Shown: positions 26,570 through 48,358 of the stretch, piece after piece
How positions within the stretch are numbered: position 1 is the first letter of the stretch
How the letters are laid out: each line of letters starts with the position of its first letter
Assembly (NCBI GenBank): GCA_964589945.1
Contig: CAZPVG010000009.1
Location: forward strand, 20,066 to 84,065
Source: an uncultured bacterium
GTDB lineage: Bacteria > Eisenbacteria > RBG-16-71-46
DNA length: 64,000 bases
Reading direction: 5' to 3'
Program-made: the position numbers and the translations under genes
The notes under the pieces: model-generated
What the model was told of the DNA's origin: nothing
The model's database searches: none
The model's input: only the letters and a program-made list of their open reading frames with translations

Positions 26570-26587
26570 AAGAGGGAGGACGGAATC

Positions 26588-28222: not shown

Positions 28223-28753
28223 ATGAAGAAACTCATCGTCGCTACCTCCGTCCTCGCGGCGCTTGCGATCGCTACGGTCGCCTTCACGCAGTCGTTCGGC
28301 GTACAGCTGGGCGAACGCAAGGGGCCGAAGCAGCCGATCGCGTACAGCCACAGGATCCACGCAGGCAAGCTCGGCATGAACTGCCGCTACTGCCACTACG
28401 GCGCCTACAAGTCGCCGTGGGCGAACATCCCCGCGATGAGCACGTGCATGGGCTGCCACAAGATGGCCGTGGCGGACCGGCCCGAGATCCAGAAGCTTGC
28501 GGACTACTACGAGCGCGGCGAGCGGATTCCGTGGGTCAAGGTGCACTACCTGCCCGACCACGTGAAGTTCAACCACAAGCGCCACCTCGCCGCGGGCTTC
28601 GCCTGCCAGACCTGCCACGGCCCCGTGCAGGAGATGGACGTCGTCTACCAGTACAGCTCGCTCAAGATGGGCTGGTGCATCGACTGTCACCGCAAGTACC
28701 TGAACGACCCCAAGCATCCCGCCACGCTCGACTGCGTGGCCTGCCACCACTAG
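28223..28753 (+). CDS. actA: Alternative Complex III subunit ActA, pentahaem cytochrome c
   Basis: Signal/anchor helix, then five CxxCH motifs (CRYCH, CMGCH, CQTCH, CIDCH, CVACH) in 176 aa. Immediately upstream of actB. Confidence 0.85.
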   Translation: MKKLIVATSVLAALAIATVAFTQSFGVQLGERKGPKQPIAYSHRIHAGKLGMNCRYCHYGAYKSPWANIPAMSTCMGCHKMAVADRPEIQKLADYYERGERIPWVKVHYLPDHVKFNHKRHLAAGFACQTCHGPVQEMDVVYQYSSLKMGWCIDCHRKYLNDPKHPATLDCVACHH

Positions 28754-28768
28754 AGGACGCGGACACCC

Positions 28769-31700
28769 ATGTCGGATTCGGTGGTCTTCAATCGCCGCGA
28801 CTTCCTGAAGCTCGTGGGCGTGGGCGTGGCCGGCGCCGCGGCCGGGTGCGCGAAGCCACCGGCGGAAAAGCTGATCCCCTTCCTGCTGGCGCCCGAGGAC
28901 ATCCTCCCGGGCGTTCCGTACTTCTATTCCAGCACGTGCCGTGAGTGCCCGGCCGGCTGCGGCATCGTCGTGCGCTCACGCGAGGGCCGCGCGATCAAGG
29001 TCGAGGGCAACCCGGACCACCCGGTGAGCCGCGGATCGCTCTGCGCGCGCGGCCAGGCCGCGGTGCAGGGCCTCTACAACCCGGACCGCCTCAAGTCGCC
29101 GATGGTGAAGGAGAACGGCAAGTGGCGGGAGGCGAAGTGGTCCGAGGCGCTCGGGCTGGCGACCGCGAGGCTCTCCGACGCAAAGGGCAGGCTGCTGGTG
29201 CTCACCGGCCGCGAGACCGGGACGATGCGCACGCTGGCGGGGGAGATCGCGAAGGCCGCGAAGGGCCGTCACGTCATGTGGGAGCCGTTCGCCTACGAGG
29301 CCGTGCGCGCGGCGAACAAGCGGACCTTCGGGATCGCCGCCGTGCCCCGCTACGACCTGTCGGCGGCGCGCTGCGTGATCTCGTTCGGCGCGGACCTCTT
29401 CGAGACCTTCGGCTCGCCGGTTGCCCAGATGCGCGACTGGGCCGCCATGCGCGGCAAGCGCGACGACGCAGCGGGCTGGTTCGTGTCCGTTGAGCCGCGC
29501 CTGTCGCAGACCGGCGCGAACGCCGACGAGTGGGTCGCGATCCGCCCGGGCACCGAGGCCGCGCTGGCGCTCGGCATGGCCAACGTGCTGTTCGCCGAGA
29601 ACCTCGCCGCGAACGTGCCGGAGCGCGCCGCGCTCAAGGCGGCGGTGGACGACTGGACGCCCGAGGCCGTCGCGCAGCAGACCGACGTCGACGCCGAGTC
29701 CGTGAAGCGCCTCGCGCGGCTGTTCGTCAAGGGCGGCGCGGGCCTCGCGGTCGCCGGCGGCGTCGCGACGCAGAGCACGCAGGCCACCTCGCTCGTGGCC
29801 GCGGTCAACCTGCTCAACTACGTCGCCGGCAACGTCGGGCGCACGCTGATGTTCGACCGGCCCCTCGACTTCGACGGCGTCTCGAGCTTCGCCGAACTCA
29901 CGGACGAAGTGAAGGCCATGAACGGCGGCGCCTACGACATGGTGATCGTGCACGGCACGAATCCCTCGTACGCGATGCCGGCGTGGGCCGGCTTCGGCGA
30001 GTCGTTCTCGAAGGTGCCGTTCAAGGTCGCGCTCGCGACCTCCATGGACGAGACCGCGGACGCGTGCGACGTCGTGCTGCCGGTCGTGCACTCGATCGAG
30101 GCGTACGGCGACGACTTCGGCTCGAAGGGCGTCTATTCGCTCCAGCAGCCCGCGATGAAGCCGCTGCCGATGTTCGCGGCACGCGAGCCCGGGGACGTGC
30201 TGCTGCAGCTCGCCTCCGCCTCGGGCTTCGCCGCGAACCCGCCGGTTGCCTGGTACGACTACCTCAAGGCGCACTGGAAGCCGGTGCACGCGCGGCTCGG
30301 CAAGGGCCGCGAGTTCGACCAGTTCTGGCTGGACGCGCTGAAGGCCGGCGGCGTCTGGGAGGACGTGCCGAACCCGAACGTGCGCTGGATCGGGACGCCG
30401 AAGTTCGAGACCGCGGCGTTCTCGGGCGAGGGCGACGTGGCGCTGGTCGTGGTGCCGTCGAACAACTTCTACGACGGACGCGGCGCGAACCGCCCCTGGC
30501 TCCAGGAACTGCCCGACATGACCAGCAAGGCCGTGTGGGGCTCGTGGGCCGAGGTCCACCCGGAGACGGCGAAGCAGCTCGGCCTCGAGTCGGGCGACAC
30601 GATCCGCGTCGAGACGTCCGCGGGCGCGCTCGAGCTTCCGGTCTACCCCTACGGCGGGATCCGCGCCGACGCGGTCGCGCTGACGCTCGGCCAGGGCCAC
30701 ACGAGCTACGGCCGCTACGCGACCGACCGCGGCGTGAACGCGGTCGCGCTGCTGCCGCAGGCCACCGACGCCGCCTCGGGCGCGCTGGCCTACCTCGGCG
30801 CGAGGGCGAAGCTCTCGCACGCCGGGAAGGCGCCTCCGCTCTACATGCAGCAGGCCTACAAGGACCAGTACGGCCGCCACATCTCCCGCGTCATCCCGGT
30901 CGCGGCGCTGCTCAGCGCCGAAGGCTCGCTCGAGCACTCGGTCGGCGCGACGCACGGCGACATCGGCGAGAACCAGCCGCGCAAGTACCCGTTCCCGGGA
31001 CAGTACCCGGCGGGCGAGGGCGTGCAGGTCGAGCCGACGCCGGCGATGACCAAGAAGGGCAAGTACACCGAGCCGCTCGCCCGTCCCGAAGGCTACAAGC
31101 CGCCGGCCCACGCGATCACCGCGTTCGATCCCGAGCTGAAGGTGCGCGGACCGAGGGAGAACCCGGTGGACGTCGGCAGCTACGCGAACGCGACCCACCG
31201 CTGGGCGCTGGCGGTGGACCTCGACAGCTGCACCGGCTGTGCGGCCTGCGTCGTCGCCTGCTACGCGGAGAACAACATCCCGGTCGTGGGTCCCGAGCTG
31301 GTCAAGAAGGGCCGCGAGATGGCCTGGCTGCGCATCGACCGCTTCGAGCAGAGGCTGGAGCCGGGCGCCGCGGACATCCGCTTCATCCCGATGATGTGCC
31401 AGCACTGCGGCGACGCGCCGTGCGAGATGGTGTGCCCGGTCTACGCGACCTACCACACGCCCGAGGGCCTGAACGGGCAGGTCTACAACCGCTGCGTCGG
31501 CACGAAGTACTGCTCGAACAACTGCCCGTACAAGGTGCGCGTCTTCAACTGGTTCGACTACTCGGCGCCCGAGAAGGTGACCTTCGCCTTCCCCGAGCCC
31601 CTGAACTGGCAGCTGAACCCGGACGTCACCGTGCGCTCCAAGGGCGTGATGGAGAAGTGCACGATGTGCATCCAGCGCATCCTCGAGGGCAAGGGCAACG

Positions 31701-31930
31701 CGAAGGACGAGAACCGTCCGGTGCGTGACGGCGAAATCCAGACCGCCTGCGCGCAGACGTGCCCCGCGCGCGCGATCACGTTCGGCGACCTCGCGGACGA
31801 GACGACGGCCGTCTGGAAGGCCAGTCACGACCGGCGCCAGTACTGGGTATTCGAGGAACTGAACACGAAGCCCGGCGTCACCTACCTGCAGAAGGTCAAG
31901 CGGGACACGATGAGCGGGGGACAGGCGTGA
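28769..31930 (+). CDS. actB: Alternative Complex III subunit ActB (molybdopterin-oxidoreductase-like domain fused to a 4Fe-4S ferredoxin domain)
   Basis: Twin-arginine signal RRDFLKLVGVGVAGAAAG, a ~700-aa MopB-like domain, and C-terminal multiple CxxCxxCxxxCP clusters. 1053 aa. Confidence 0.9.
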   Translation: MSDSVVFNRRDFLKLVGVGVAGAAAGCAKPPAEKLIPFLLAPEDILPGVPYFYSSTCRECPAGCGIVVRSREGRAIKVEGNPDHPVSRGSLCARGQAAVQGLYNPDRLKSPMVKENGKWREAKWSEALGLATARLSDAKGRLLVLTGRETGTMRTLAGEIAKAAKGRHVMWEPFAYEAVRAANKRTFGIAAVPRYDLSAARCVISFGADLFETFGSPVAQMRDWAAMRGKRDDAAGWFVSVEPRLSQTGANADEWVAIRPGTEAALALGMANVLFAENLAANVPERAALKAAVDDWTPEAVAQQTDVDAESVKRLARLFVKGGAGLAVAGGVATQSTQATSLVAAVNLLNYVAGNVGRTLMFDRPLDFDGVSSFAELTDEVKAMNGGAYDMVIVHGTNPSYAMPAWAGFGESFSKVPFKVALATSMDETADACDVVLPVVHSIEAYGDDFGSKGVYSLQQPAMKPLPMFAAREPGDVLLQLASASGFAANPPVAWYDYLKAHWKPVHARLGKGREFDQFWLDALKAGGVWEDVPNPNVRWIGTPKFETAAFSGEGDVALVVVPSNNFYDGRGANRPWLQELPDMTSKAVWGSWAEVHPETAKQLGLESGDTIRVETSAGALELPVYPYGGIRADAVALTLGQGHTSYGRYATDRGVNAVALLPQATDAASGALAYLGARAKLSHAGKAPPLYMQQAYKDQYGRHISRVIPVAALLSAEGSLEHSVGATHGDIGENQPRKYPFPGQYPAGEGVQVEPTPAMTKKGKYTEPLARPEGYKPPAHAITAFDPELKVRGPRENPVDVGSYANATHRWALAVDLDSCTGCAACVVACYAENNIPVVGPELVKKGREMAWLRIDRFEQRLEPGAADIRFIPMMCQHCGDAPCEMVCPVYATYHTPEGLNGQVYNRCVGTKYCSNNCPYKVRVFNWFDYSAPEKVTFAFPEPLNWQLNPDVTVRSKGVMEKCTMCIQRILEGKGNAKDENRPVRDGEIQTACAQTCPARAITFGDLADETTAVWKASHDRRQYWVFEELNTKPGVTYLQKVKRDTMSGGQA

Positions 31931-33306
31931 CGACGACGACGCTACGCAACGTCGCGGTGGACGGCGTGAACGACGTGGAGGACCGTCCGATCACGCAAAA
32001 GTCGCTCAACGACGACGTCCTCCGCATGATCAGCCTTCCGGGAAAGGTCTGGATCACGCTGTTCGTCCTGGACCTGATGGTGCTCGCCTGCGGGCTCGCC
32101 GCCGTGCGCAACATGATCGTGCTGGACTGGGGCGTCTCGGGCATGACGCGGCCGATCATGTGGGCGGTGGACATCACGAACTTCGTCTTCTGGGTCGGCA
32201 TCGCCCACTGCGGCACGCTCGTCTCGGCGGTGCTGTTCCTCTTCCGGTCGCACTTCCGTCGTGCGGTCTACCGGACGTCGGAGGCCATGACGGTCTTCGG
32301 CGTGCTCACGGCGGCGTTGTTCCCGGCCATCCACACCGGCCGGCCGTGGTTCGACTACTGGCTCTTCCCGTACCCGAACCAGCGCCAGATCTGGACGAAC
32401 ATCCGCTCGCCACTCCAGTGGGACGTGTTCGCCGTCAACACCTACCTCACGATCTCGACCATCTTCTTCCTGGTCGGCCTCATCCCCGACGTCGCCGCCG
32501 CGCGCGACCGCGCGAAGCACCCGGTGATGCGCCTGATCTACACGATCATGTCGTTCGGCTGGACGGGCGCGAACTACCAGTGGAAGCACTACTACGGCGC
32601 CTACCTGTTCTTCGCCGCGCTGGCGACGCCGCTCGTCTTCTCGGTCCACTCGGTCGTCTCGTGGGACTTCGCGATGGCCCAGGTGCCCGGCTGGCACTCG
32701 TCGCTCTTCGCGCCCTACTTCGTGGCCGGCGCGATCTTCTCGGGCGTCGCGATGGTGATCTTCCTGCTCATCATCATCCGCAAGGGTTACAACCTGCAGC
32801 ACATCGTCACGATCGACCACATGGAGAAGCTCGCGAAGCTGGTGCTGCTGACCTCGACGATGGTCGGTTACTCGTACCTGACCGAGTTCTTCATGGCCTG
32901 GATCGGCCCGAGCAAGGTCGAGCGCGACGTGTTCTGGTTCCGCGCGGTCGGCCACTACTGGTGGGCGTTCTGGATCATGTTCAGCTGCAACGTGATCTTC
33001 CCGCTCCTGCTTTGGTTCAAGGGGGTGCGGCGGAACATGAAGGCCCTGTTCGTGATCGCGATCCTGGTCAACGTGGGCATGTGGTTCGAGCGCTTCACGA
33101 TCATCGTCACGTCGCTCACGCGCGCCTTCAACCCGGCCAACTGGTTCTACTACCGGGTCTCGCTCACCGAGCTCGCACTCATCGCCGGCTCGTTCGCCTG
33201 GTTCTTCATGTTCTTCCTGATCTTCGTGCGCGTCCTGCCCGCCTTCTCGATCGCCGAGATCAAGGAGACGCTGGCGATGCCCCGCCGCCGGGGAGGAGCC
33301 CACTGA
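31927..33306 (+). CDS. actC: Alternative Complex III subunit ActC (NrfD/PsrC-like quinol-interacting membrane subunit)
   Basis: GTG overlaps the actB stop. ~10 TM helices, NrfD-like. Confidence 0.8.
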   Translation: MTTTTLRNVAVDGVNDVEDRPITQKSLNDDVLRMISLPGKVWITLFVLDLMVLACGLAAVRNMIVLDWGVSGMTRPIMWAVDITNFVFWVGIAHCGTLVSAVLFLFRSHFRRAVYRTSEAMTVFGVLTAALFPAIHTGRPWFDYWLFPYPNQRQIWTNIRSPLQWDVFAVNTYLTISTIFFLVGLIPDVAAARDRAKHPVMRLIYTIMSFGWTGANYQWKHYYGAYLFFAALATPLVFSVHSVVSWDFAMAQVPGWHSSLFAPYFVAGAIFSGVAMVIFLLIIIRKGYNLQHIVTIDHMEKLAKLVLLTSTMVGYSYLTEFFMAWIGPSKVERDVFWFRAVGHYWWAFWIMFSCNVIFPLLLWFKGVRRNMKALFVIAILVNVGMWFERFTIIVTSLTRAFNPANWFYYRVSLTELALIAGSFAWFFMFFLIFVRVLPAFSIAEIKETLAMPRRRGGAH

Positions 33307-33854
33307 TGTTCGGCCGCATGCTGGAGGGCATCCTGAATCCCGTGTCGCCGAAGTTCAACGGCGTCATGGGGATCTACTACTACGTGGACGACGCGGCGGA
33401 GGCGGTGAGGGCGCTGCGGCAGGCCGGGCACCGCAACCTGAACGTCTTCTCGCCCGTGCCGTACCACGAGATCGAGCACGAGCTCGAGCACGGGCCCTCG
33501 ATCGTGCGCTGGGTGACGGCGGTCGGCGGCATCCTGGGGGTGAGCGGCGGCTTCGGGCTGTGCTTCTACTCGATCTGGGCGTGGCCGCTCGTCATCGGCG
33601 GCAAGGAGCTCTACGACCTCCCGCCCATGACCGTGATCGCCTATGAGTCCATGATCCTGATCGCGGGCCTGTCGAACCTGCTTGGAATGCTCGCGCTGGC
33701 ACGTCTGCCGCAGGTGAAGCAGGTGGCGCCGTACGACCCGCGTTTCCAGGAGGACCGCATCGGCGTCTGGGTGCCGTGCGAGGGCCAGGCGGCCGCACGC
33801 GTCGAGCAGATGATGAAGGGAAGCGGGGCCGAGGAGGTGCAGCTCCATGCCTAG
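33306..33854 (+). CDS. actD: Alternative Complex III subunit ActD
   Basis: 182-aa protein with two TM helices. ATG overlaps the actC stop (TGATG). Position and size match ActD. Confidence 0.65.
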   Translation: MFGRMLEGILNPVSPKFNGVMGIYYYVDDAAEAVRALRQAGHRNLNVFSPVPYHEIEHELEHGPSIVRWVTAVGGILGVSGGFGLCFYSIWAWPLVIGGKELYDLPPMTVIAYESMILIAGLSNLLGMLALARLPQVKQVAPYDPRFQEDRIGVWVPCEGQAAARVEQMMKGSGAEEVQLHA

Positions 33855-34413
33855 GACCCTGCTGCTGCTGGGCGTGATCGCGCTGTGGTCGGTGTCCTTC
33901 CAGCAGGGCTGCAAGGACCTCAAGAGCTCGCTGACGCACTGGCGCTACTACCCGATCCGCGACATGCGGCAGACCGTCGTGATCGACCCGCAGCGCTACG
34001 ACCCCACGCACCCGCAGTGGCTGACCTTCCGCGGTCCCGACTCGCTGGCGGTGCCGTCCATCGACGTGGACCGGCACATCGGCGAGGCGCCCTACGAGGA
34101 GACGGCGGGCCTGATCCACGACCCGGGCGTGTCGACCCCGGCGTCGATCGTCCGCGGCGACACCCTTTTCCACACGATCTGCACGCCGTGCCACGGCATG
34201 ACGATGAAGGGCGACGGCACCGTCGCGCCGTTCTTCATGCCCCCGCCCGACCTGCTCGCCGAGCAGACGCGCAAGCGGAGTGACGGCTTCATCTTCAGCT
34301 ACGTGCGCCACGGCGGCGTCGTGATGCCGTCGTACGGGAACGCGCTCTCGGCGCACGACGCATGGGACGTGATCCACTACCTCCGCCACATGCAGAAGGT
34401 CAATCCGCGATGA
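33847..34413 (+). CDS. actE: Alternative Complex III subunit ActE, monohaem cytochrome c
   Basis: Signal peptide with a Cys (QQGC, possible lipobox) and a single CTPCH haem motif. Overlaps actD by 8 nt. Confidence 0.8.
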   Translation: MPRTLLLLGVIALWSVSFQQGCKDLKSSLTHWRYYPIRDMRQTVVIDPQRYDPTHPQWLTFRGPDSLAVPSIDVDRHIGEAPYEETAGLIHDPGVSTPASIVRGDTLFHTICTPCHGMTMKGDGTVAPFFMPPPDLLAEQTRKRSDGFIFSYVRHGGVVMPSYGNALSAHDAWDVIHYLRHMQKVNPR

Positions 34414-35666
34414 ACCGAGAGGCCGTACTCCGCGACATCGCCGGCAAGCTGCCGGTGAAGCCGAACGCACGCAAGCGCCAGATCTGGATCGCCTGCCTGC
34501 TCGTCGGCGTCGCGTCGTTCGCGTTCCTGCTGGTGACGAACCCGCTTCGCGCCTGGGGCTCGTGGACGGTCAACACGCTCTACTTCCTCGGCATCGCCGA
34601 GGGCGCGCTCGCGTTCGCGGCGGCCTACCGGCTCGCGAACGGCAAGTGGGGCGGCCCGATCGTGCGCATCGCCGAGTCGTTCTCGGCCTACCTGCCGATC
34701 GGCATCGCGACGCTCGTCGTCCTGCTCGTGGCCGGGATCTGGAAGTACCTCTCGTGGACCCAGGCGGTCGAGCCGCGCATCCAGCCGTTCCTGAACGTGC
34801 CGTTCCTCTACGTGCGCACGCTGGGCGGCGCGCTGCTCTTCTGGTGGCTCGCGCGCAAGATGGTGCGCACCTCGCTGCGGCCCGACCTGCAGGCGCTCAA
34901 GCCGCACGTCTCGCCCGAGCTGAAGCCGGAGTACGAGAAGCTCACCGCGAACTGGAAGGGCGACGAGGCCGAGCGCGACTGGAACCGCCACGAGCTCGCG
35001 CACCTCTCGCCGCAGGTCGCGCTGGCGTTCGCGGTCTTCTTCACCGTGCTCGCGTGGGACTTCATCATGCTGCTGACGCCGAACTGGGTGACGGGCCTGT
35101 TCGGCTGGTTCGTCTGGGCCGGCGCGTTCATCTGCGGCGTCGCGGCGACGGCGCTCATGGCCACGCAGCTGCGCTCGAAATACCGGCTCGAGGCCTACAT
35201 CCGCACGAACATGTTCTGGGACATCGGCAAGGTCCTGTTCGCCTGGTGCATCTTCTGGGGCTACCTGTTCTGGTCGCAGTACCTGCCGATCTGGTACGCG
35301 AACATGCCCGAGGAGACGTGGTGGGTCTTCCTGCGCTTCGAGGAGCCGTGGCGCACGTTCTCGTTCGCGGCGTTCACGCTCATCTTCGTGATCCCGCTCG
35401 TCGGCCTGCTCAACAAGACCTCGAAGACGAACCCGATCCTGCTGCTCTCGTTCTCGCTCATCGTCCTCGCCGGCGTCTGGATCGAGCGGCACGTGCTCGT
35501 GATGCCGTCGCTGAACGCCGAGCACGCGTGGATCGGCCTGCCCGAGGTCGGCGTGACGATCGGGTTCCTCGGGCTGTTCGGCTGGGCGGTGCAGGGCTTC
35601 CTGACCAAGTTCCCCGCCGTGAACGTCATGGACGTCTTATCCGGCGCGCACGGGCCCGAGCACTAG
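34410..35666 (+). CDS. actF: Alternative Complex III subunit ActF (second NrfD-like membrane subunit)
   Basis: ATGA overlap with the actE stop. Polytopic membrane protein homologous in topology to ActC. Confidence 0.8.
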   Translation: MNREAVLRDIAGKLPVKPNARKRQIWIACLLVGVASFAFLLVTNPLRAWGSWTVNTLYFLGIAEGALAFAAAYRLANGKWGGPIVRIAESFSAYLPIGIATLVVLLVAGIWKYLSWTQAVEPRIQPFLNVPFLYVRTLGGALLFWWLARKMVRTSLRPDLQALKPHVSPELKPEYEKLTANWKGDEAERDWNRHELAHLSPQVALAFAVFFTVLAWDFIMLLTPNWVTGLFGWFVWAGAFICGVAATALMATQLRSKYRLEAYIRTNMFWDIGKVLFAWCIFWGYLFWSQYLPIWYANMPEETWWVFLRFEEPWRTFSFAAFTLIFVIPLVGLLNKTSKTNPILLLSFSLIVLAGVWIERHVLVMPSLNAEHAWIGLPEVGVTIGFLGLFGWAVQGFLTKFPAVNVMDVLSGAHGPEH

Positions 35667-35684
35667 CGAGCGTTCACGCACCTT

Positions 35685-35726
35685 CGCGCCCGGGTCCGTT
35701 CGATGGACCCGGGCGCGCGTGTTTTC
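35685..35726 (+). terminator. Rho-independent terminator after actF
   Basis: 13-bp stem CGCGCCCGGGTCC / GGACCCGGGCGCG with a 7-nt loop, followed by GTGTTTT, 19 nt downstream of the actF stop. Confidence 0.7.
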
Positions 35727-35763
35727 CGCCGGCGGGCCGCGGCGCGGCGCCGGCACGGTTGGC

Positions 35764-35850
35764 GCCGGGATGGCGAAACTGGCAGACGCAGCGGACTTAA
35801 AATCCGCTGGGCTTCGGCCCGTGCAGGTTCGATCCCTGCTCCCGGCACCA
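35764..35850 (+). tRNA. tRNA-Leu (anticodon TAA), 87 nt with long variable arm, CCA encoded
   Basis: Acceptor stem GCCGGGA/TCCCGGC, anticodon loop CTTAAAA, extended variable arm GGGCTTCGGCCCG, T-arm GGTTCGATCC, 3' ACCA. Confidence 0.85.
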
Positions 35851-35893
35851 ATCGCGCGCGTTCACGATGCGCGTGGAGGGACCCGCTGCAGGC

Positions 35894-37828
35894 CTAGCGG
35901 AGCCAGACGAGCCGCCGCGACTGCGATTCGCCCGCGCGCGTGAAGCGCACCCAGTACAGCCCGGGCTGTGCACGGCCATTGTCGGACTGGCCGCGCCAGC
36001 GCAGCGTGCCGGTCGCGGGGCCGAGCGCCGCGCCCCAGATCCGACGGCCCGAGAGGTCCAGGACTTCGACTCGTCCGGCGGATCCCACCGAAGGCGGCAC
36101 GAACTCGACGCTGCCCTGCGCGATGGTCGGGCGAACGGAGAAGGAGAGTCGTGGAGTGGTCGTCGCAACGGCAGTCGTGTTCGGGCACGATTCCGGCAGC
36201 GCGCCAATGAGGCCGTAGAGGCCGCCCGCGCCGCACGGGGAGCCCTGTTGCAGGCCCAGGTCGCCCGACGCGAGGTCGCAGAGCCTCGGATCCACCGTGA
36301 GGTTGCTGTCGAGGGACGACCACGCGCCAACGAACGGCGCGACGTAATTGTCCCAGGCATCGTTGAAGGCGAACGACCCCGGGGACTGCGTCGGAAACGC
36401 GCCTCCATACCGGGCGTTCAGGACCGAGAGGTTCCGCTGGACGACCACCGGCGATCCGGTTGGCGGGTTCGGAGACTCGACGCGCAGGCCGTCGCCACCG
36501 TTCAGCACGCAGGTATTGGACGCCAGCGAGTCGGGCATATCCGGCGGTGGATACGACCCCGGTTGCAGCACGATGCCATCACCGCTGTTGGCCCATGCGA
36601 CATTACCGACGACCGAAACCCCGGTGGCGTCCAGCCGGAAGCCCGCGCCGCCGTTGTGGTCGCTCTGGCAGTCCCAGACCGTCGATGTGAACCACGGGGG
36701 ATCCGATGCCGTCGTCGTCTCGGCGATGAGGCGGATGCCATCACCCGCAACATGGGTGACACGCGAGTGAACAAGTCTGAGGGCACTGTACTGGTTCCTG
36801 AGGCGAATTACGATGCCGTCAGCTTCCGCACCATCGACCAACAGGTTCGTCAGATAATGGCCTGGGAAGTGCGCCCAATCCGGCGCAATGGTGAGGGCGT
36901 CCCCGGTTGAGGAAAGTACGGTGTCTGCAACGAGTCCAAGGACTGGAGCATAGGAAGCTGGACATGGCAGCCAGCGAATGGCGCTTCCACAACGCTCGAA
37001 GCGGGAGTTCGAAACGAAGAGTTGCGTGTCGTGGATGGTGGTGGTGTCGCATTCTGCGTTCGACTGCTCGAGCCAGATCGCGTTGCCAGCGATATCTTGC
37101 ACTACACAGGACTCGAGATCGGTGACTCCGTTGCAGACGACCCCGTTCGACGCAGTCTTGAAGTGACAGTTGCTGAAGATGACCGCATCGGGGGTGCTTC
37201 CCCGAGCGAGCACGAGCGTATCTGCGGGTCCTTCAAAAGAGCAGTTCTCAAAGGAGACGGGCCCCGTGGCGCAGGTGGAAGCGTGCAGCGGCGCGCTGTG
37301 AAAATGCAGCCCGTCGAAGCGGAGAAGATTGCTGCTATCGTAGCACTCTAACCAGGTCCGGCCGCAGAAGTCGCAGTTGTGAAAGTTCGGTCCCCCGGGC
37401 GCAGCCACGGAGTTCACCCGGCCCAGAAAGACGCAACTGCGAAACTCGACGGCGATTCCGTCCAGGCTAACCCCCTTTGCATAGGTCAGGCCCACGACGT
37501 GCCAGCTACTCGAAGATAACCGGGGCGCGTCAATGCTGCTTGCCGTCGTTACCGCTGGCCCACCCGACCCCACGATGACGACAGTGGGAATAGCGAAGGA
37601 GAAGCGGAGTGTGTCCGGGTACTCCCCGGGGCTTACGAGGATTGAATCCCGCGGCGAAACGACGAGTTGGTCGATCGCCGGCTGAATGTTTGTGAAATCG
37701 CCGCCGCCGTTGATGTCGACGAGATAGTGCGAGGCGCGCGCCGTCGAGGGCGTGAGCAAGGCCGCGAGGCAGCCCGCGATGATCAGCGCGAGAGGCGCGC
37801 GGGAGAGTCGCGCGAGGGGAGCGTGCAT
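35894..37828 (-). CDS. Secreted right-handed parallel beta-helix (pectate-lyase/NosD-like) protein with a T9SS C-terminal sorting domain
   Basis: Start trimmed to M at 37828 (GGAGGA ribosome-binding site, signal peptide MHAPLARLSRAPLALIIAGCLAALL). Many Asn/Cys/Gly-rich beta-helix repeats. C-terminal ~80 aa (…VEVLDLSGRRIW…GLYWVRF…RLVWLR) match the Por_Secre_tail pattern. Confidence 0.7.
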   Translation of the reverse strand: MHAPLARLSRAPLALIIAGCLAALLTPSTARASHYLVDINGGGDFTNIQPAIDQLVVSPRDSILVSPGEYPDTLRFSFAIPTVVIVGSGGPAVTTASSIDAPRLSSSSWHVVGLTYAKGVSLDGIAVEFRSCVFLGRVNSVAAPGGPNFHNCDFCGRTWLECYDSSNLLRFDGLHFHSAPLHASTCATGPVSFENCSFEGPADTLVLARGSTPDAVIFSNCHFKTASNGVVCNGVTDLESCVVQDIAGNAIWLEQSNAECDTTTIHDTQLFVSNSRFERCGSAIRWLPCPASYAPVLGLVADTVLSSTGDALTIAPDWAHFPGHYLTNLLVDGAEADGIVIRLRNQYSALRLVHSRVTHVAGDGIRLIAETTTASDPPWFTSTVWDCQSDHNGGAGFRLDATGVSVVGNVAWANSGDGIVLQPGSYPPPDMPDSLASNTCVLNGGDGLRVESPNPPTGSPVVVQRNLSVLNARYGGAFPTQSPGSFAFNDAWDNYVAPFVGAWSSLDSNLTVDPRLCDLASGDLGLQQGSPCGAGGLYGLIGALPESCPNTTAVATTTPRLSFSVRPTIAQGSVEFVPPSVGSAGRVEVLDLSGRRIWGAALGPATGTLRWRGQSDNGRAQPGLYWVRFTRAGESQSRRLVWLR

Positions 37829-38554
37829 GGCTGTTCCTCCGACCGACGGCCGCATCCATGCTTCGTAGGGTGACCTTGGTGGGAATGCTAGCACCCGTGA
37901 GCCGTAGCGCCGAGACGTTGCCTCCGACGATCTCGCGGTTGGTACCCCTCGCCAGGACTGCACGGACTCAACTAGGTGTCCGGGTGAGGGGCGGGGACGT
38001 CTTGGGTGGGTTCGGGGTGTTGCGGGTGTTGCGGCTGTTTCGGGCTCCAAGGAGGGGCGCCTCGACGTGCCCGCCATTGCGCGAGGACATGTTCCTTGTC
38101 CAAGGATGCAGGCGCCTCCGAGTGATCGAACGTCACACGGGCGGGTGCAGTTGTCCCGCAGTTGGCGCTCGGCGCTGGACGCTGGTCTAGAGCGCCAAGG
38201 ATGCCTTCTGCTGGCCTCGTGAGAGCTGTCTTGATTCAACACTCACGCAGGATGCGGGGACGTGCCACGGGGCTGCCGTGCATAGCCAGCTTTGGGGGAG
38301 ACGACGCCGCCGACCTGGTCCCGCGTATGTGAGCGGGTCCCCGGTCGAGACATGAGCAGCCCACCGCGCCCGTCTCCATACCCCCCGGGTTGCGCTGTGC
38401 TAGTTCTGTGTCAGAACCATCCGGAGCGACCGGTGGCTGTGTGTTCGAATCAGTCACTACGCCTCTGGGGCGCCACGCATCGCAGCCGCCAATGATGCCC
38501 GTTCGGACGCGTTCGGCACCGATGCTTCCGACCGCGCCAATTGCGGTGCTAGCC

Positions 38555-38609
38555 CTTAAGACCCGCTGGGCGAAAGCCCGTGCAGGTTCGATCCCTGCTC
38601 CCGGCACCA
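38555..38609 (+). repeat. 3' fragment of tRNA-Leu (direct repeat; last 30 nt identical to 35821-35850), att-like scar
   Basis: GTGCAGGTTCGATCCCTGCTCCCGGCACCA is identical. The upstream 25 nt are diverged. No 5' acceptor or D-arm, so it is not a functional tRNA. Confidence 0.7.
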
Positions 38610-38716
38610 CAACGGCGACTCGGTGCGACGGGCGACGGTCCCCGTTCTGTCCCCGAGTGACGAATCGCTCGCGGCTTCACGGGCTCGGGTGAATCGGCGC
38701 TGCTCGCCGGACCGCG

Positions 38717-39586
38717 CTACTTCTTCTCCGCCGGCTCGACCAGCTTCGCAACCAGCGTCCGCAGCGCCGAGCGCCACGGCTCCATCCCGCCTTCGGCGGG
38801 GGCGACGATCGAAGCCAGGTCGTCCTCGGTGAGGGTCTCCTGGGCGCCGAGCACGGAGGCGCCGAAGCGCGTCCGGCGGGCGAGGAGCCCCTCGGCGCCG
38901 ACCCGCATGACGCGTCCGGCGGGCGTGAGCACCACGCCGGTGAGCTGCAGGACCTGCACCGGTGTGTCGAGCGAGGTGAGCCAGGGCACCGGCATCGTGC
39001 GGTCGGTGCCGATCTCGATGACCTTCCCACCCTTCCAGGTGGCCTGGCGCACCCACTGCTCCTCGAACCCGAGCTGGATCGCGACGACCGCGTCGATCGA
39101 GTCGCCGGCGCCGGCGATCGCGCGCTCGCGCCAGGCGCGGCCGGGCTCCTCGACGCCGAACGTCATGCGGCGCGGGGGGCCGGGGTCGATCTCGTCCGAT
39201 CCGCGGGGCAGGCCGTCGGGCCCGGTCCCGCCGCGCCGGCAGCCGAAGCGCACGTTCGGTCCGTCGCGCAGGGGCCAGTCGCCGCCGGGCAGCGGAGCGG
39301 TCAGCTCGATCCGGTCCAGCTCGAGTCGGAGCGAATCGAGCAGCGCCGCGAGGGCGGGGGAGCGGTCGGGCGTGGGATCCAGCGAGGCCGGGTCGTCGCG
39401 GAAGGAGACCGCGACGTGCGCGACGCGGTCCTCCGCGGCGGGCGGCTTGCCGTGATAGAAGGGCGGCCGGTCGAAGTCGCCGCGGAAGACCTCCGCGGCG
39501 GCGGGGGCGGCGGACAGTGCGACCAGCAGGCCGAGAAGCACGAAGCGCTCCGGGCGCGCGGCCCGCATTCCAAAGGTGGGGTTCAT
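38717..39586 (-). CDS. Hypothetical exported protein
   Basis: 289-aa ORF with an N-terminal signal peptide (alternative start at 39568). No recognisable motif. Confidence 0.45.
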   Translation of the reverse strand: MNPTFGMRAARPERFVLLGLLVALSAAPAAAEVFRGDFDRPPFYHGKPPAAEDRVAHVAVSFRDDPASLDPTPDRSPALAALLDSLRLELDRIELTAPLPGGDWPLRDGPNVRFGCRRGGTGPDGLPRGSDEIDPGPPRRMTFGVEEPGRAWRERAIAGAGDSIDAVVAIQLGFEEQWVRQATWKGGKVIEIGTDRTMPVPWLTSLDTPVQVLQLTGVVLTPAGRVMRVGAEGLLARRTRFGASVLGAQETLTEDDLASIVAPAEGGMEPWRSALRTLVAKLVEPAEKK

Positions 39587-40285
39587 TGGCGCGGCAACCT
39601 AGACGTGGCCGGTTGGCCGGTCAAGAAGCAAGGACGCCGGCCTCGGCTCGCTCCCGGCGACCCTTCTCGCATCGCCTCCCGCGTCGGGACCGGCCCCCGG
39701 CGATGCCGCCGCGTTCGTCCGAGGGAGCCACGTTTCAACTGTTCCCACGGACCAGAATGCTCTCCGGCGCTTCGCATCACTCGCGAACGTGGACGCACGA
39801 GAGTTCTCGCTCGCACGACCCGCGACCGCCAATGCCCCGTCGGGAGAAACCGCCGCCCCCCCGATTGCAGGGTCCTGACTCATGCCAGCAGACTGCCCGC
39901 TGACCGACTACGGGAGTCCCGGAGGGTCATGCTACTTCCGGATACTTGCGCGTTGTTCCTTGAAGGTTACTCTGTTTCCTGAATCACGATCCTGATGCTG
40001 GGGTCAGTACACAACCAGGTTCAGTCCGTGCCGCGCTGAGCCGAGACATCTTTCGGTGGGAGTTCCGCTCGGCGCGGCTTGATGGAATGGGCCGCGATCC
40101 TGTTGGGGTGCGGTCCCGTTCCGGCGGGATTGGAGCCGTTCGCAAGACGGCCCCGGTCCCTTGACACCGGCAACACGACAACAACGCGTCCCTGCGGGAT
40201 TCGAAGGCCCGAGCAAGTCGCATCTCGGCCCGTGGTGCGCGACAGGATTCGCAAGCAACAGGCACGAATGCCGAGGGAACACCAC

Positions 40286-41233
40286 ATGTCACGTGAGATG
40301 GCGTTGCGACGTCTGCCCCTCATTCTCGCGTTGTTTGCGGGTCTGGCGGTCCTGGCCGGCTTCTCCGTGGCGAAGCCGAGCGCCGAGACCGGGGTTCACG
40401 AGAGCCAGGCCTGCCTCGATTGCCACGACGGGATGGACGCGACGCTCGTCGGCACGGCGCACCGGGTCACCGGCAAGGGGGCCCGCGTCGCCTGCACCGA
40501 CTGCCATGCCGGGCCGAGCGCGCACTGGGAGGACGACCCGGAGAAGAACCCGATGCCCAACCCGGGGAAGATGACCTCCACGGCGGAGGCCCGGGTGTGC
40601 ACCCAGTGCCACGAGAACTCGCACCAGCAGAACATGCTCGAGAAGAACGTGCACGCCATGAACAACGTGGCGTGCAGCGCGTGCCACAGCGTGCACGGGT
40701 CGAAGCACTACTCGCTGCTGCGCAAGCCGCAGAACGAGCTGTGCGAGTCCTGCCACACGCGCGTGGCCGGCCAGTTCGCACGGCCGTACCGCCATCCGAT
40801 CGAGGAAGGCGTCATCCAGTGCACCGACTGCCACATGACGCTCGACCGGACCACCCGGCCCCTTTCCAAGGACGGCACGAACGTCTGCCTGAAGTGCCAC
40901 GGCGACCTCGCCGGGCCGTTCCCCTACGAGCACGAGGCCACGCTCGATCACTCGACCGAAGAGGGCGGCTGCATCTCGTGCCACGACCCGCACGGCTCGT
41001 CGCTTCCGCGCATGCTCAAGCAGCCTTACCAGCCGCCGCACGAGCAGCTCTGCACGCAGTGCCACTCGATCCCGCCCAAGCACCTCTCGAACCGGATGCA
41101 CGGGACGCGCTGGAACGGCGTGGCCTGCAACGAGTGTCATACCGACATCCACGGCTCCTACGACAACCGGTGGCTCCTGAGCACGTCCCTTCGGGCTCAG
41201 GGCTGCATGAACGGGGCCTGTCATGGCCGCTAG
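40286..41233 (+). CDS. Periplasmic decahaem c-type cytochrome, MtrA/MtoA/PioA-like
   Basis: Signal peptide, then 10 CxxCH motifs in ~290 mature residues, plus a terminal C-x4-CH. The size and haem density are those of the MtrA family. Confidence 0.75.
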   Translation: MSREMALRRLPLILALFAGLAVLAGFSVAKPSAETGVHESQACLDCHDGMDATLVGTAHRVTGKGARVACTDCHAGPSAHWEDDPEKNPMPNPGKMTSTAEARVCTQCHENSHQQNMLEKNVHAMNNVACSACHSVHGSKHYSLLRKPQNELCESCHTRVAGQFARPYRHPIEEGVIQCTDCHMTLDRTTRPLSKDGTNVCLKCHGDLAGPFPYEHEATLDHSTEEGGCISCHDPHGSSLPRMLKQPYQPPHEQLCTQCHSIPPKHLSNRMHGTRWNGVACNECHTDIHGSYDNRWLLSTSLRAQGCMNGACHGR

Positions 41234-41246
41234 GACGGTGTCCGAC

Positions 41247-42815
41247 ATGCGAACTCAGAGGATGGCAGTGGGGATCGCGGCGCTGATGCTCCTGGCCGGC
41301 GCGAGCGTGGCGGGAGCGGCGAAGCTGAACGGCACCGTGAAGGTGGGCAACATCTTCCTGGACGAGACGGGCGACCGCTCGACGGTCCAGGAGACCTTCG
41401 ACATCTACGACGGCTTTGCGGTCAGCCAGGTCCTGCTCGACGGCAGCCTGCAGCCCCAGAGCCGGTTCGTGCTCGACCTGCGCGACATCAACCTCGACTC
41501 GCGCCAGGGGAACTTCAACTATCGCCTGCCCGGCCTCTTCAAGGTGCGGGCGGCCTACGACCAGAACCGCTACGTGTTCGATCCCGGCCGCGGCGTCACG
41601 TCGGAGCGCAAGAACTGGCAGGTCGGGCTGCAGGTCACCCCGATGAAGTCGCTCGTGCTCTCGGGCGACCTCAACCGCATCACGCGCACGGGTGACCGGC
41701 TCTCGTTCCCGCCCGAGCCGGGAACGCTGCTCGGCACCGTCAGCTCGCTCGGGACGCGCTACGACAACGCGCTGCTCAACTCACAGTTCGGCGCCGAGTA
41801 CCACCGGGGCCGCGCGGGCGGGGCCGTCTCCGTCCAGCTCTCGGACTACTCGGACGACCTCAACGGCACGGCCGACCGGAAGGGGCAGGTGTGGGCGGCG
41901 CGGCTCTACGCCCCGATGCCGTTCTACAACCGGTGGAACAACCTGTTCCGGGCGTCGTACGGCACGCGCAAGCTCACCGACGGCGGGGTCGAGTACAAGA
42001 TGTCGAGCTTCCAGTACACGGGGATCCTGGCGCCGCGCGAGTCCTACCAGCTGCGGTACGCGTTCGAGGCGAGCCGCGTGAAGGACAACGCGCTCGACCT
42101 GCAGACGGACCGCATCCAGAACGACCTCGACGCGACCTGGTTCCACAAGTACGGGAACCTCAACGCCGGCTTCGGCTACGAGACGAACGACGACGACATC
42201 ACGCTGACCGACTACATGAGCTGGCACGCGGGAGGCTCGTTCCGCCCGGACAAGCGCCTGAACGTGCGGTTCGAGTACAACGGGCGCGTGAAGAACGACC
42301 AGGAAGACCTGACGCTGCTCAAGGACATTGAGTCGGCGAGCTACCGCGGACGCCTCGAGATCCGGCCGAACGATCGCATCACGCTCGGCGGGGAGTACGC
42401 GAAGCGGCGCCGCGAGATGCCGGACATCCAGGTCGTGGTGAGCGGCATCACGGCCGGCGCGTTCGCGAGGTACGAGCAGCCGAAGTGGGGTGCCGCGTCG
42501 CTCGACTACACCCACGCCATCGACGAGTACGACGACCGTCTCGCGCCGTTCAATGTCGTGACCGCGATCACGACGGCGCGGGTGGATCTCTCGCGGATCA
42601 AGAACCTGGATCTCGCGAGCGGCGTCACCTACCTCGACATCGGACGCGACCTCGACATCGAGAAGTCCATCGTGTTCGTGGAGGGGGGATACAAGTTCGC
42701 GGGCCGCTATCACCTGGATGCGAAGTACAACGTCTACAACTACGACGACTACATCCTGCTCGACCGTTACTACACGGCGAACGTCGTCCGGGTGAACCTC
42801 GGATACGACCTGTAG
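41247..42815 (+). CDS. Outer-membrane beta-barrel protein, candidate MtrB/MtoB/PioB-like porin partner of the adjacent cytochromes
   Basis: Signal peptide (AGASVAGAA), no Cys, and alternating amphipathic Tyr/Gly/Asp/Asn-rich beta-strand pattern throughout. 522 aa. Starts 14 nt after the decahaem gene stop. Family assignment is by context and composition only. Confidence 0.55.
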   Translation: MRTQRMAVGIAALMLLAGASVAGAAKLNGTVKVGNIFLDETGDRSTVQETFDIYDGFAVSQVLLDGSLQPQSRFVLDLRDINLDSRQGNFNYRLPGLFKVRAAYDQNRYVFDPGRGVTSERKNWQVGLQVTPMKSLVLSGDLNRITRTGDRLSFPPEPGTLLGTVSSLGTRYDNALLNSQFGAEYHRGRAGGAVSVQLSDYSDDLNGTADRKGQVWAARLYAPMPFYNRWNNLFRASYGTRKLTDGGVEYKMSSFQYTGILAPRESYQLRYAFEASRVKDNALDLQTDRIQNDLDATWFHKYGNLNAGFGYETNDDDITLTDYMSWHAGGSFRPDKRLNVRFEYNGRVKNDQEDLTLLKDIESASYRGRLEIRPNDRITLGGEYAKRRREMPDIQVVVSGITAGAFARYEQPKWGAASLDYTHAIDEYDDRLAPFNVVTAITTARVDLSRIKNLDLASGVTYLDIGRDLDIEKSIVFVEGGYKFAGRYHLDAKYNVYNYDDYILLDRYYTANVVRVNLGYDL

Positions 42816-42928
42816 CCGTGACGCAGTGGAAGCGGGGCCTGACTCCGGTCGGGATTCCGCGTGATCTCGATTCGGAGATGAAAGTGCAGAGTGCAATGGG
42901 CCGATTCAGCCTGAGGGAGGGTGCGGCG

Positions 42929-43930
42929 ATGCTTCTTCTGAAGAGGGTGGTGTTGCTGTCGGCGGTCGCCTTGGTGGCGTTCGGCTTGACGGCGTGTGAG
43001 CGCAAGATCACGCGGATCGAGCTCGCCTCGGGACCGCTGACGTGCGCGGACTGCCACAACACGAGCAGCCTGATCACGGGCAAGGAAACCGAGTGGGCGG
43101 AGTCCGTGCACGGCACGGGCACGGCCTACCTCCGCGGGACGAGCGCGGGCTGCGCGGGCTGCCACTCCGGCGGCGCGTTCGTGAAGATGATTGCGGCGGG
43201 CCAGAACCCGGGTACGGTCACCGAGGGTGACCCGGATCCGACGCGCCAGGACTGCCGTACCTGCCACAACATCCACACGACCTACACGATGGCGGACTTC
43301 TCGCTCCGGACGACGGCGCCGGTGAACCTGTTCGCGATGGATACCCCGACGGTCTTCGATGGCGGCGAGGGCAACCTGTGCGCGAACTGCCACCAGCCGC
43401 GGCGCGACGGCCCCGTGGCCGTGAACGGTACGATCACCGGGATCTCGACCCACTGGGGTCCGCACCACGGACCGCAGAGCGCGATGCTCCTCGGTGTCGC
43501 GGGCGCCGGCGTCACGGGCACCCCGGCCGGCCACTACCAGGGCGTGCCGAACACCTGCGTGACCTGCCACCTGGGTTCCGGGCTGGACCACCACTTCGAG
43601 CCGTCGGCCACGACGTGCGCGAAGTGCCACCCGGGCGCGACGAACTTCGACATCGACAACGTCCAGACCGAGATCGCGGCCCTCGGCGACTCGCTCGGCG
43701 AGATGCTGCTGAACCTCAATCTCATCAGCGAGAACAGCCCGGACGGGCACCCGACGGTCACTTCGGCGCCGGAGGCCCAGGGCGTCGCGCTCTACAACTG
43801 GCTCTACGTCATGCACGAGGACAAGAGCATGGGCGTCCACAACGCCGACTACGCCCGGGCGCTGCTGCAGAAGGGCCTCCAGGAGCTGTCGCCGGCTCCG
43901 AAGGGCGTGGGGGCGGTCGCCCGGCGGTAG
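42929..43930 (+). CDS. Hexahaem c-type cytochrome lipoprotein
   Basis: GAGGGAGG ribosome-binding site, lipoprotein signal MLLLKRVVLLSAVALVAFGLTAC, six CxxCH motifs (CADCH, CAGCH, CRTCH, CANCH, CVTCH, CAKCH). Confidence 0.75.
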   Translation: MLLLKRVVLLSAVALVAFGLTACERKITRIELASGPLTCADCHNTSSLITGKETEWAESVHGTGTAYLRGTSAGCAGCHSGGAFVKMIAAGQNPGTVTEGDPDPTRQDCRTCHNIHTTYTMADFSLRTTAPVNLFAMDTPTVFDGGEGNLCANCHQPRRDGPVAVNGTITGISTHWGPHHGPQSAMLLGVAGAGVTGTPAGHYQGVPNTCVTCHLGSGLDHHFEPSATTCAKCHPGATNFDIDNVQTEIAALGDSLGEMLLNLNLISENSPDGHPTVTSAPEAQGVALYNWLYVMHEDKSMGVHNADYARALLQKGLQELSPAPKGVGAVARR

Positions 43931-43985
43931 GGAAGCGAATCTCGAATCCCGCACCCGGGCCGCCCGGGTGGGCGGCCAGCAGTCC

Positions 43986-44018
43986 GCAGCCGCGGCCGGC
44001 ATCGCCGGCCGCGGCTGC
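43986..44018 (+). terminator. 15-bp perfect hairpin downstream of the cytochrome module (terminator candidate)
   Basis: GCAGCCGCGGCCGGC-atc-GCCGGCCGCGGCTGC, 56 nt after the stop at 43930. No U-tract. Confidence 0.45.
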
Positions 44019-44290
44019 TGCGCTTCCGCGGCCCGGGCCGGTGCCTTCCCGGCGGCCCCGCCTCCGGCCCCCCATGGTCCCGCCTGGCCGGGCCAGCCCC
44101 CTCAAGCCGGAAGGCCGCTCCTGCCGAAAACGAGGACCGGGTCTCCGTACCGTTCTCCCCCCGGGGACGGACCCTGACGCTCCCCGAGGGGCCCGGTGCC
44201 ATCTGAGATATGGTGCCGCCCATCCATCCTCTGACCGTGACCTTCGGAAGCCGCGCACGGTCCGAGCGCGCCGTTTTCCGAGGGAAAAGC

Positions 44291-48351: not shown

Positions 48352-48358
48352 GCCGCCG

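Follow-up and report, generated by a model that had tools for sequence, protein, structure and literature searches.

In the scheme proposed for electron uptake by microaerophilic iron oxidisers, Cyc2-ACIII, alternative complex III (ACIII) takes the inner-membrane part (PMC5566968), and clusters that resemble it have been proposed to serve iron reduction in MBNT15 (PMC9386147); it may also serve periplasmic multihaem acceptors (PMC5317091). Among the cytochromes of outer-membrane conduits, MtrA and MtoA/PioA do not sort into clades by function (PMC8805035), so the direction of electron flow is not readable from sequence. The 64,000-nucleotide stretch studied here (the window; contig CAZPVG010000009.1, from an uncultured bacterium of the Eisenbacteria) carries genes of both kinds on one strand: an actABCDEF operon for ACIII (28223-35666) and, downstream of it, three genes for a periplasmic decahaem cytochrome, an outer-membrane porin and a hexahaem lipoprotein, the trio that would make up a conduit. 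A first-pass annotation of the window suggested that their proximity reflects an electron route between quinol and the outer membrane. Comparison with relatives leads us to a different reading, to which we give a probability of roughly 60%: two independent respiratory gene units became neighbours through genome rearrangement. A dedicated electron route between ACIII and the conduit is possible but not supported.

Neighbours in a single clade

Relatives were sampled from both sides of the junction; L-numbers are labels of the loci obtained, whose flanks reach at most 10 kb. On the conduit side, a profile of the porin run against one genome per species yielded 43 loci, from Eisenbacteria, Krumholzibacteriia, Latescibacterota, Gemmatimonadota-labelled bins, Ignavibacteriales, Calditrichota and one Fibrobacteraceae bin; the Act proteins of the window, searched for in conduit loci by tblastn and phmmer, matched in L034 alone. 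On the ACIII side, a metagenome scan with ActF yielded 51 loci. Adjacency was counted on the conduit side in the 35 loci, from the porin scan and later additions pooled, whose sequence extends 2 kb or more 5' of the decahaem gene, and on the ACIII side in the 12 loci with at least 1.5 kb downstream, three of which have 10 kb.

Position, from which the link had been deduced, does not bear it out: ACIII lies near one of the 35 conduit loci and is missing from the other 34. The one is that of the closest relative of the window species (L034, L095 and L009; ActF 87% identical), in which ActF, a hairpin, tRNA-Leu and the decahaem gene follow in succession on the same strand with a gap of ~0.7 kb. 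L095, a second contig of the L034 organism, runs from inside the tRNA gene through the whole trio; neither it nor L104-L109 was accepted as a further case of adjacency, all being from the same relative as L034. Seen from the other side, none of the 12 related ACIII loci has conduit genes downstream. With synteny failing in this way, the functional link between ACIII and conduit is left unsupported, though not refuted. Nor do the two form a shared transcript or regulatory unit: a terminator, a tRNA gene, the remnant of an island and a gene on the opposite strand lie between them.

The adjacency predates the split of the window species and its closest relative, since the latter has the same ACIII-tRNA-conduit succession, and the two genomes together represent one evolutionary event. 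Complete chromosomes in the porin scan measure 3.2 to 6.5 Mb; in a genome of 4-5 Mb, by a rough estimate, two given loci would fall within 5 kb of each other with a probability of ~0.2-0.25%, and the ~36 lineages sampled would show at least one such coincidence with a probability of ~10%. A single event is thus not clearly above chance, though respiratory genes tend to cluster.

The trio has other neighbours elsewhere. Its order, decahaem-porin-hexahaem, is kept in about 48 loci from several phyla of the FCB group, and in L096, L098, L100 and L101 it stands in unrelated contexts, among genes for chemotaxis, ABC transport, 2-oxoacid:ferredoxin oxidoreductase, amidohydrolases and acyl-CoA dehydrogenase. 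On two Eisenbacteria contigs (the P0014 contig, JGI 3300041967, and L099, 576-8475) it abuts a seven-gene set, encoding a Rieske protein, a cytochrome b, a multihaem protein (~415-420 aa), a NapC/NirT-type multihaem protein (624-628 aa), another multihaem protein (244 aa), an FeS protein (265 aa) and an NrfD protein (402 aa); the set is downstream and co-directional with the trio on one contig, upstream and divergent on the other. It is a candidate for the dedicated inner-membrane partner of this conduit family. Cytochrome b genes also lie within 10 kb of the trio in L008, L013, L014, L020, L025, L028, L032 and L033 (as well as L010 and L016), in Latescibacterota, Krumholzibacteriia and some Eisenbacteria, often together with genes for a c554-like cytochrome with four haems and for a hexahaem protein of ~505 aa that resembles NapC/NirT and has two helices. 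As the conduit's usual companions, the comparative data point more strongly to such Rieske/cytochrome b and NapC/NirT-NrfD modules than to ACIII.

These modules enter into a rival explanation, an outward route in which menaquinol would be oxidised by ActC/F and its electrons passed through ActB to the ActA/ActE haems, from which they would reach the decahaem protein, directly or by a periplasmic carrier, and by way of the barrel and the hexahaem lipoprotein arrive at Fe(III), Mn(IV) or humics, with ACIII replacing the Rieske/cytochrome b-NapC/NirT-NrfD set of sister lineages. Proximity and a common strand in two related genomes speak for it, and are offset by the terminator and tRNA between the units and by the lack of the adjacency in 34 of 35 conduit loci and 12 of 12 ACIII loci. 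Related conduits do adjoin quinol-active modules, one of which, with multihaem, FeS and NrfD proteins, is built on the ACIII/Qrc plan, and the literature permits both transfer from ACIII to periplasmic multihaem acceptors and iron reduction by ACIII-like clusters (PMC9386147, PMC5317091); but the slot that holds the conduit is variable, and the ACIII in front of it is canonical, with a monohaem ActE and no clade-specific divergence. The window's lack of any other quinol dehydrogenase or cytochrome would suit an outward route, as would act operons that are not clustered with oxidase genes, in the window or in any relative's locus examined. ACIII exit haems have higher potentials than those of the MtrA type, which would make outward transfer unfavourable. 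We consider the outward route unlikely, and it seems rather improbable that a canonical ACIII was recruited in this clade as quinol:conduit oxidoreductase in place of the sister lineages' set.

The ACIII operon

The operon, its terminator and the genes to its left are as follows.

25364..28066, + strand: ThiF/MoeB-rhodanese and M48 peptidase genes (Pfam), the conserved left context of the operon
28223..28753, + strand: actA, pentahaem cytochrome c (5 CxxCH; best PDB matches 6f0k_A, 8k9e_A and 6btm_A, E ~1e-40)
28769..31930, + strand: actB, TAT-exported MopB-like domain fused to an FeS domain (Pfam and PDB matches)
31927..33306, + strand: actC, NrfD-like membrane subunit (PF03916 NrfD, E=1.7e-22)
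33306..33854, + strand: actD (PF11821 ActD, E=1.6e-41, 142 bits against a cut-off of 25.7)
33847..34413, + strand: actE, monohaem cytochrome c (1 CxxCH; PF13442 and PF00034)
34410..35666, + strand: actF, second NrfD-like membrane subunit (PDB matches 6btm_F, E=1.1e-35, 6f0k_F, E=8e-24, and 8k9e_F)
35685..35727, + strand: hairpin with T-tract resembling an intrinsic terminator, ending the act operon (stem 35685-35717)

The operon was annotated at first pass as complete, and it does consist of six consecutive same-strand genes that overlap or abut, from 28223 to 35666. The composition then given, a pentahaem ActA, a MopB/FeS ActB, two NrfD-like subunits and a monohaem ActE, agrees with motif, Pfam and PDB matches throughout. 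ActA matches 6f0k_A at E=1.7e-40. ActB, with 6f0k_B as its best match (E=3e-145), has the Pfam domains Molybdopterin, Molybdop_Fe4S4, Fer4_7/11 and TAT_signal and the twin-arginine (TAT) motif RRDFLK; homology to the solved ACIII complexes suggests that it holds no molybdenum cofactor. ActC is 69-86% identical to its orthologues in relatives, and ActD belongs to PF11821, an ACIII-specific Pfam family. ActF had no match in the Pfam search; like ActA and ActB, it finds its best PDB matches in its counterparts from all four solved ACIII complexes. As judged from homology, the assignment of 28223-35666 to ACIII is solid. The ACIII of the two conduit-adjacent genomes is not unusually divergent compared with that of relatives that have no adjacent conduit.

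The clear hairpin and T-tract reported after the operon were recovered 3' of actF. The stem has 15 pairs, 12 of them G-C, and is followed by the tail CGTGTTTTCC, with TGTTTT directly after the stem; it is the strongest terminator-like site within 35-44.4 kb, and L034 has an equivalent hairpin at the same place.

All this is part of a housekeeping block, glucokinase-ThiF-M48-actABCDEF-terminator-tRNA-Leu. The order ThiF-M48-ActA..F recurs in L047, L051, L056, L059, L064, L077 and L104; the block from ThiF through M48 and ACIII to tRNA-Leu is conserved in relatives with 59-82% ActF identity, and tRNA-Leu(UAA) lies 3' of ActF in 27 of the 29 related loci scanned.

The conduit genes

The MtrA-like decahaem protein, porin and lipoprotein cytochrome that had been noticed downstream of ACIII were identified at 40286-43930.

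39925..40285, + strand: 5' flank of the decahaem gene, conserved in part in the closest relative, presumably its own promoter and 5' leader
40286..41233, + strand: periplasmic decahaem cytochrome, homologue of the MtrA/DmsE family, 315 aa (10 CxxCH)
41247..42815, + strand: predicted outer-membrane beta-barrel with MtrB-like fold, ~520 aa (AlphaFold and Foldseek; the start is uncertain, at 41223, 41247 or 41268)
42929..43930, + strand: hexahaem outer-membrane lipoprotein, 333 aa (6 CxxCH; lipobox LTAC)

The decahaem protein matches the MtrA chain 6r2q_A at E=6.6e-21. Its TIGR03508 score of 165 bits is below the curated cut-off of 192, making it a homologue and not a member by threshold, and it scores 156 bits against the GSU2203 decahaem family. 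The porin has no Pfam match, PF11854 included, and its family profile found no PDB match. An AlphaFold model built from 25 homologues (pLDDT 83.6) has 26 strands, and the top Foldseek match of this model is MtrB (6r2q_B; E=5.5e-14, TM 0.70), the next match being at E=2.8e-08; the model thus predicts a 26-strand barrel of MtrB-like fold. PF11854 is present in 2 of 120 porin homologues among the matches listed.

The hexahaem protein scores 29.2 bits with PF22113 (MtrC/MtrF domains II/IV), just under the cut-off of 30, and nearly all its homologues among the matches listed carry this domain. It is not an MtrC, a four-domain decahaem protein encoded upstream of mtrA: it has six haems in 333 aa, and its gene lies downstream of the porin gene. 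Its AlphaFold model is poor (pLDDT 59.7), below use for fold comparison. The conduit family as a whole has hundreds of homologues in Eisenbacteria, Krumholzibacteriia, Latescibacterota, Ignavibacteriales and Calditrichota.

Upstream of the decahaem gene, two elements are conserved with the closest relative: GGCCCGTGGTGCGCGA..GGATTC, some 40-60 nt before the ATG (~40225-40250 in the window, ~2240-2265 in L034), and, farther upstream, CATGCTACT..TACTTGC. A comparison of 17 loci, with start codons picked roughly, found no motif shared beyond the closest relative, and there is no sigma-70-type promoter match in 35000-44400.

Judged by the identity of its product to the window's hexahaem protein, the trio's third gene forms two groups among L001-L043 and L095-L102 (58-79% and 29-37%), and the decahaem and porin genes are collinear throughout both. 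These two identity classes beside a collinear decahaem-porin pair suggest that the surface cytochrome is exchanged as a module, something described for MtrC. Separately, four Eisenbacteria loci have several kb of repetitive multihaem coding sequence directly upstream of the decahaem gene (L006, 6420-8690; L008, 5607-8714; L023, 2425-5517; L037, 3198-6323), which may encode giant multihaem cytochromes.

The interval between the two units

From the ActF stop codon to the ATG of the decahaem gene there are 4619 nt, in keeping with the 4.6 kb first reported. This interval and the genes to the right of the conduit contain the following.

35764..35850, + strand: tRNA-Leu(UAA) (ARAGORN; Rfam, 57 bits), conserved right boundary of the ACIII block
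35851..38609, no strand: probable island remnant, 2759 bp, between tRNA-Leu and the partial copy of its 3' half (GC 0.652)
35894..37855, - strand: secreted right-handed beta-helix protein (PF13229 Beta_helix), island cargo
38555..38609, + strand: 55-nt partial copy of the tRNA-Leu 3' half (att-like repeat), a direct repeat 89% identical to 35796-35850
38717..39586, - strand: Hyp289, a 289-aa exported protein of unknown function (no Pfam match; third-position GC, GC3, 0.94)
44210..49762, + strand: sucA-sucB-lpd, 2-oxoglutarate dehydrogenase (Pfam), conserved right boundary of the variable slot described below (collinear in L077, at 83-87%)

The insert had been described as bracketed by tRNAs. 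There is indeed one tRNA and a repeat-bounded insert, but the second "tRNA" is a partial copy only: neither ARAGORN nor Rfam calls a tRNA at 38555-38609, which we rejected as such, and both find tRNA-Leu(UAA) to be the only intact tRNA in the window. The last 33 nt of the two repeat copies are identical, and the variable arm differs (CTTCGG vs GAAAG). The beta-helix gene is the single gene of the island and stands out by its GC3, 0.745 vs 0.92-0.99 for every neighbour; its product has no homologue in any relative's locus examined. The small open reading frames (ORFs) of the island have no Pfam matches, and Pfam detects no integrase or other mobility gene. The island is absent at this position in L034. 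The repeat of the tRNA 3' half, the low GC and the GC3 of the beta-helix gene indicate that 35851-38609 is probably a decayed integrative element that inserted into tRNA-Leu.

Hyp289 has an orthologue, 70% identical, in the closest relative (L009, 2263-3021, - strand), where it lies on the downstream side of the hexahaem gene, and no homologue in any other relative's locus examined; Hyp289 is missing between tRNA-Leu and the decahaem gene in L034. The order of trio and Hyp289 is thus swapped between the window and its closest relative. Since the closest relative spans the distance from ActF to the decahaem gene in ~700 bp, without the island, the 4.6-kb gap in the window is partly the product of later insertion. 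Assemblies of the closest relative tend to stop at this junction: six independent ones (L104-L109) end ~160 bp after actF, inside tRNA-Leu, and the conduit-carrying contig L095 begins within the tRNA 3' half. Such breaks point to a repeat or to strain-level variation at the junction.

What follows the tRNA differs from relative to relative. L077 matches the window's gene order from ThiF to tRNA-Leu and once more at sucA-sucB-lpd (83-87%), with 5 kb of unrelated cargo and no conduit in between; the cargo includes a 1113-aa ORF that has no Pfam match and a pilin-like protein with an N-methylation motif. Pairwise, the post-tRNA regions of relatives have little content in common, and the tails of L045 (81% ActF identity) and other short contigs have no match to the window. 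The collinearity of L077 and the differing content after the tRNA therefore define the interval from tRNA-Leu to sucA as a variable slot.

A slot of this kind invites the explanation that the trio itself is mobile cargo, carried in or moved by an element that targets tRNA-Leu, and that its position by ACIII is a by-product of the hotspot. The slot does contain the remnant of an island, with a repeat of the tRNA 3' half; the att-like repeat, however, encloses the beta-helix gene only, not the trio. That trio and Hyp289 are ordered differently in the window and the closest relative, that the trio is found in many unrelated genomic contexts and that contigs of the closest relative keep ending within the tRNA gene would all fit mobility, but Pfam and a repeat search found no integrase, transposase or flanking repeats around the trio, and its GC3 is native. 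The notion that the conduit is foreign by GC content was rejected on the same values (0.92-0.95); only the beta-helix gene deviates. We hold mobile cargo to be improbable.

In full, the gene order is glucokinase (-), ThiF, M48, actABCDEF, terminator, tRNA-Leu, beta-helix (-), partial tRNA, Hyp289 (-), decahaem-porin-hexahaem, sucA-sucB-lpd. The G+C content of the window is ~72%, and genes were called by GC3. Its remaining ORFs belong to central metabolism and housekeeping (Pfam), and the nearest named homologues of its proteins come from metagenome-assembled genomes of Candidatus Eisenbacteria.

Oxidases and redox partners

The first-pass annotation had noted the lack of cbb3/caa3 oxidase genes, and no oxidase is encoded in the window: a six-frame scan revealed neither HPEVY (haem-copper) nor CuA, and no signature of CcoN or bd. 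Four proteins, ActA, ActE, the decahaem and the hexahaem cytochrome, account for all 22 CxxCH motifs of the 64 kb. Nor does any relative's ACIII locus examined contain an oxidase signature motif. The sole HPEVY among the relatives' loci is at ~11689 (-) in L027, from Krumholzibacteriia, ~2 kb downstream of the trio.

The absence of an oxidase bears on an inward route, in which Fe(II), minerals or cathodes would supply electrons to the conduit, periplasmic carriers reduced by the decahaem protein would feed a terminal oxidase encoded elsewhere, and ACIII, running in reverse, would drive some electrons uphill to quinones. Such a role for ACIII has been proposed in iron oxidisers (PMC5566968), and conduits of the MtoAB/PioAB type work inward, MtrA and MtoA not being in function-specific clades (PMC8805035); yet the window has no carbon-fixation genes, oxidase or small soluble cytochrome, and a surface hexahaem lipoprotein fits reducers of the MtrCAB type, MtoAB and PioAB having none (PMC5566968). 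The adjacency in the window and its closest relative, which could be taken in its favour, is not conserved synteny (1 of 35 conduit loci, 0 of 12 ACIII loci). An inward route appears highly improbable.

Discussion

If the two units are independent, as we prefer, the ACIII would be the lineage's ordinary complex, oxidising quinol at the NrfD-like subunits and passing electrons via ActB to the haems of ActA and ActE; it would act as the cell's general quinol:periplasmic cytochrome oxidoreductase, with terminal acceptors encoded elsewhere. The trio would be a self-contained MtrAB-type module with its own upstream region, in which the decahaem protein would thread the 26-strand barrel and contact the hexahaem surface lipoprotein, so that electrons could cross the outer membrane; the direction of their flow is one we infer. 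This module would have come to lie in the slot between tRNA-Leu and sucA, the same slot that appears to have received a tRNA-targeted island. Its inner-membrane partner would be encoded elsewhere, or be whichever periplasm-facing quinol oxidoreductase the cell has. In biochemical terms ACIII could pass electrons to or from the decahaem protein, and it is a plausible donor to the conduit, as one candidate and not as a dedicated partner.

Several observations weigh against independence. The adjacency is tighter in the closest relative (0.7 kb, same strand) and has persisted since the species diverged. The GC3 of the conduit genes is native (0.92-0.95), so they are not a recent foreign import. 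The window encodes no oxidase. Unlike some relatives' conduits, that of the window has no quinol dehydrogenase gene beside it; it therefore needs an inner-membrane partner, and ACIII is the nearest candidate. Against dedicated coupling, in turn, argue the terminator, the tRNA, the opposite-strand gene, the variable slot and a canonical, undiverged ACIII, as does the fact that oxidase genes are absent from every ACIII locus examined, not only from the window.

Were it true that ACIII feeds the conduit, it would be a new addition to the quinol oxidases of extracellular electron transfer (CymA, CbcL, ImcH and others) and the first ACIII-to-Mtr-type extracellular electron route, and would point to respiration of minerals or humics by the abundant, uncultured Eisenbacteria of soil. 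The evidence favours a more modest picture, of a canonical ACIII and an FCB-group conduit variant that are neighbours in one small clade only. Useful by-products are the conduit family itself and its recurrent linkage to the Rieske/cytochrome b-NapC/NirT-NrfD set.

Comparison with known systems

The ACIII of the window is a typical family member, with the same six genes in the same order as in Rhodothermus marinus (6F0K), Flavobacterium johnsoniae (6BTM), Roseiflexus (6LOD) and Chloroflexus (8K9E). It differs from these in that its act genes, and those in relatives' loci examined, are not clustered with a caa3 or cbb3 oxidase, and in that tRNA-Leu follows operons of the window type (27 of the 29 loci scanned). 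ActA is also shorter, 177 aa vs 444 aa in F. johnsoniae, the long N-terminal extension being missing.

As in the Cyc2-Cyc1-ACIII and MBNT15 proposals (PMC5566968, PMC9386147), a link by which ACIII would connect the quinone pool to outer-membrane cytochromes is here suggested by genome content. The earlier proposals concern either Cyc2, a fused porin-cytochrome, or act-like clusters that are non-canonical, and rest on cross-genome conservation or altered subunits, whereas here the ACIII is canonical and the association is limited to one small clade.

The conduit resembles Shewanella MtrCAB (6R2Q): the decahaem protein is homologous to MtrA, the predicted 26-strand barrel is closest to MtrB, and the surface lipoprotein cytochrome has a domain resembling MtrC domains II/IV. 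Unlike in MtrCAB, the barrel has ~520 aa, vs 649 in the solved MtrB chain, and is missed by PF11854; the third component has six haems in ~330 aa and is not a four-domain decahaem protein; and the order is A-B-C, not C-A-B, with no CymA-type gene near the trio. The hosts, of the FCB group, are outside the three phyla of the MtrCAB survey (PMC8805035). With MtoAB and PioAB the conduit shares the A-then-B order and the core of decahaem protein and porin; those systems have no surface cytochrome (PMC5566968), whereas here a hexahaem lipoprotein gene follows that of the porin, and there are no MtoD, CymA(Mto) or PioC-like genes. The logic of porin, periplasmic multihaem and lipoprotein multihaem proteins is also that of Geobacter Pcc (OmbB-OmaB-OmcB), to which no homology was found: the decahaem protein matches the DmsE/MtrA and GSU2203 families and the barrel resembles MtrB. 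A limited literature search turned up no account of such a conduit from Eisenbacteria, Krumholzibacteriota or Latescibacterota. With its compact barrel invisible to Pfam, its six-haem surface partner and its A-B-C order, it is a variant of the MtrAB type that is widespread in the FCB group and apparently uncatalogued.

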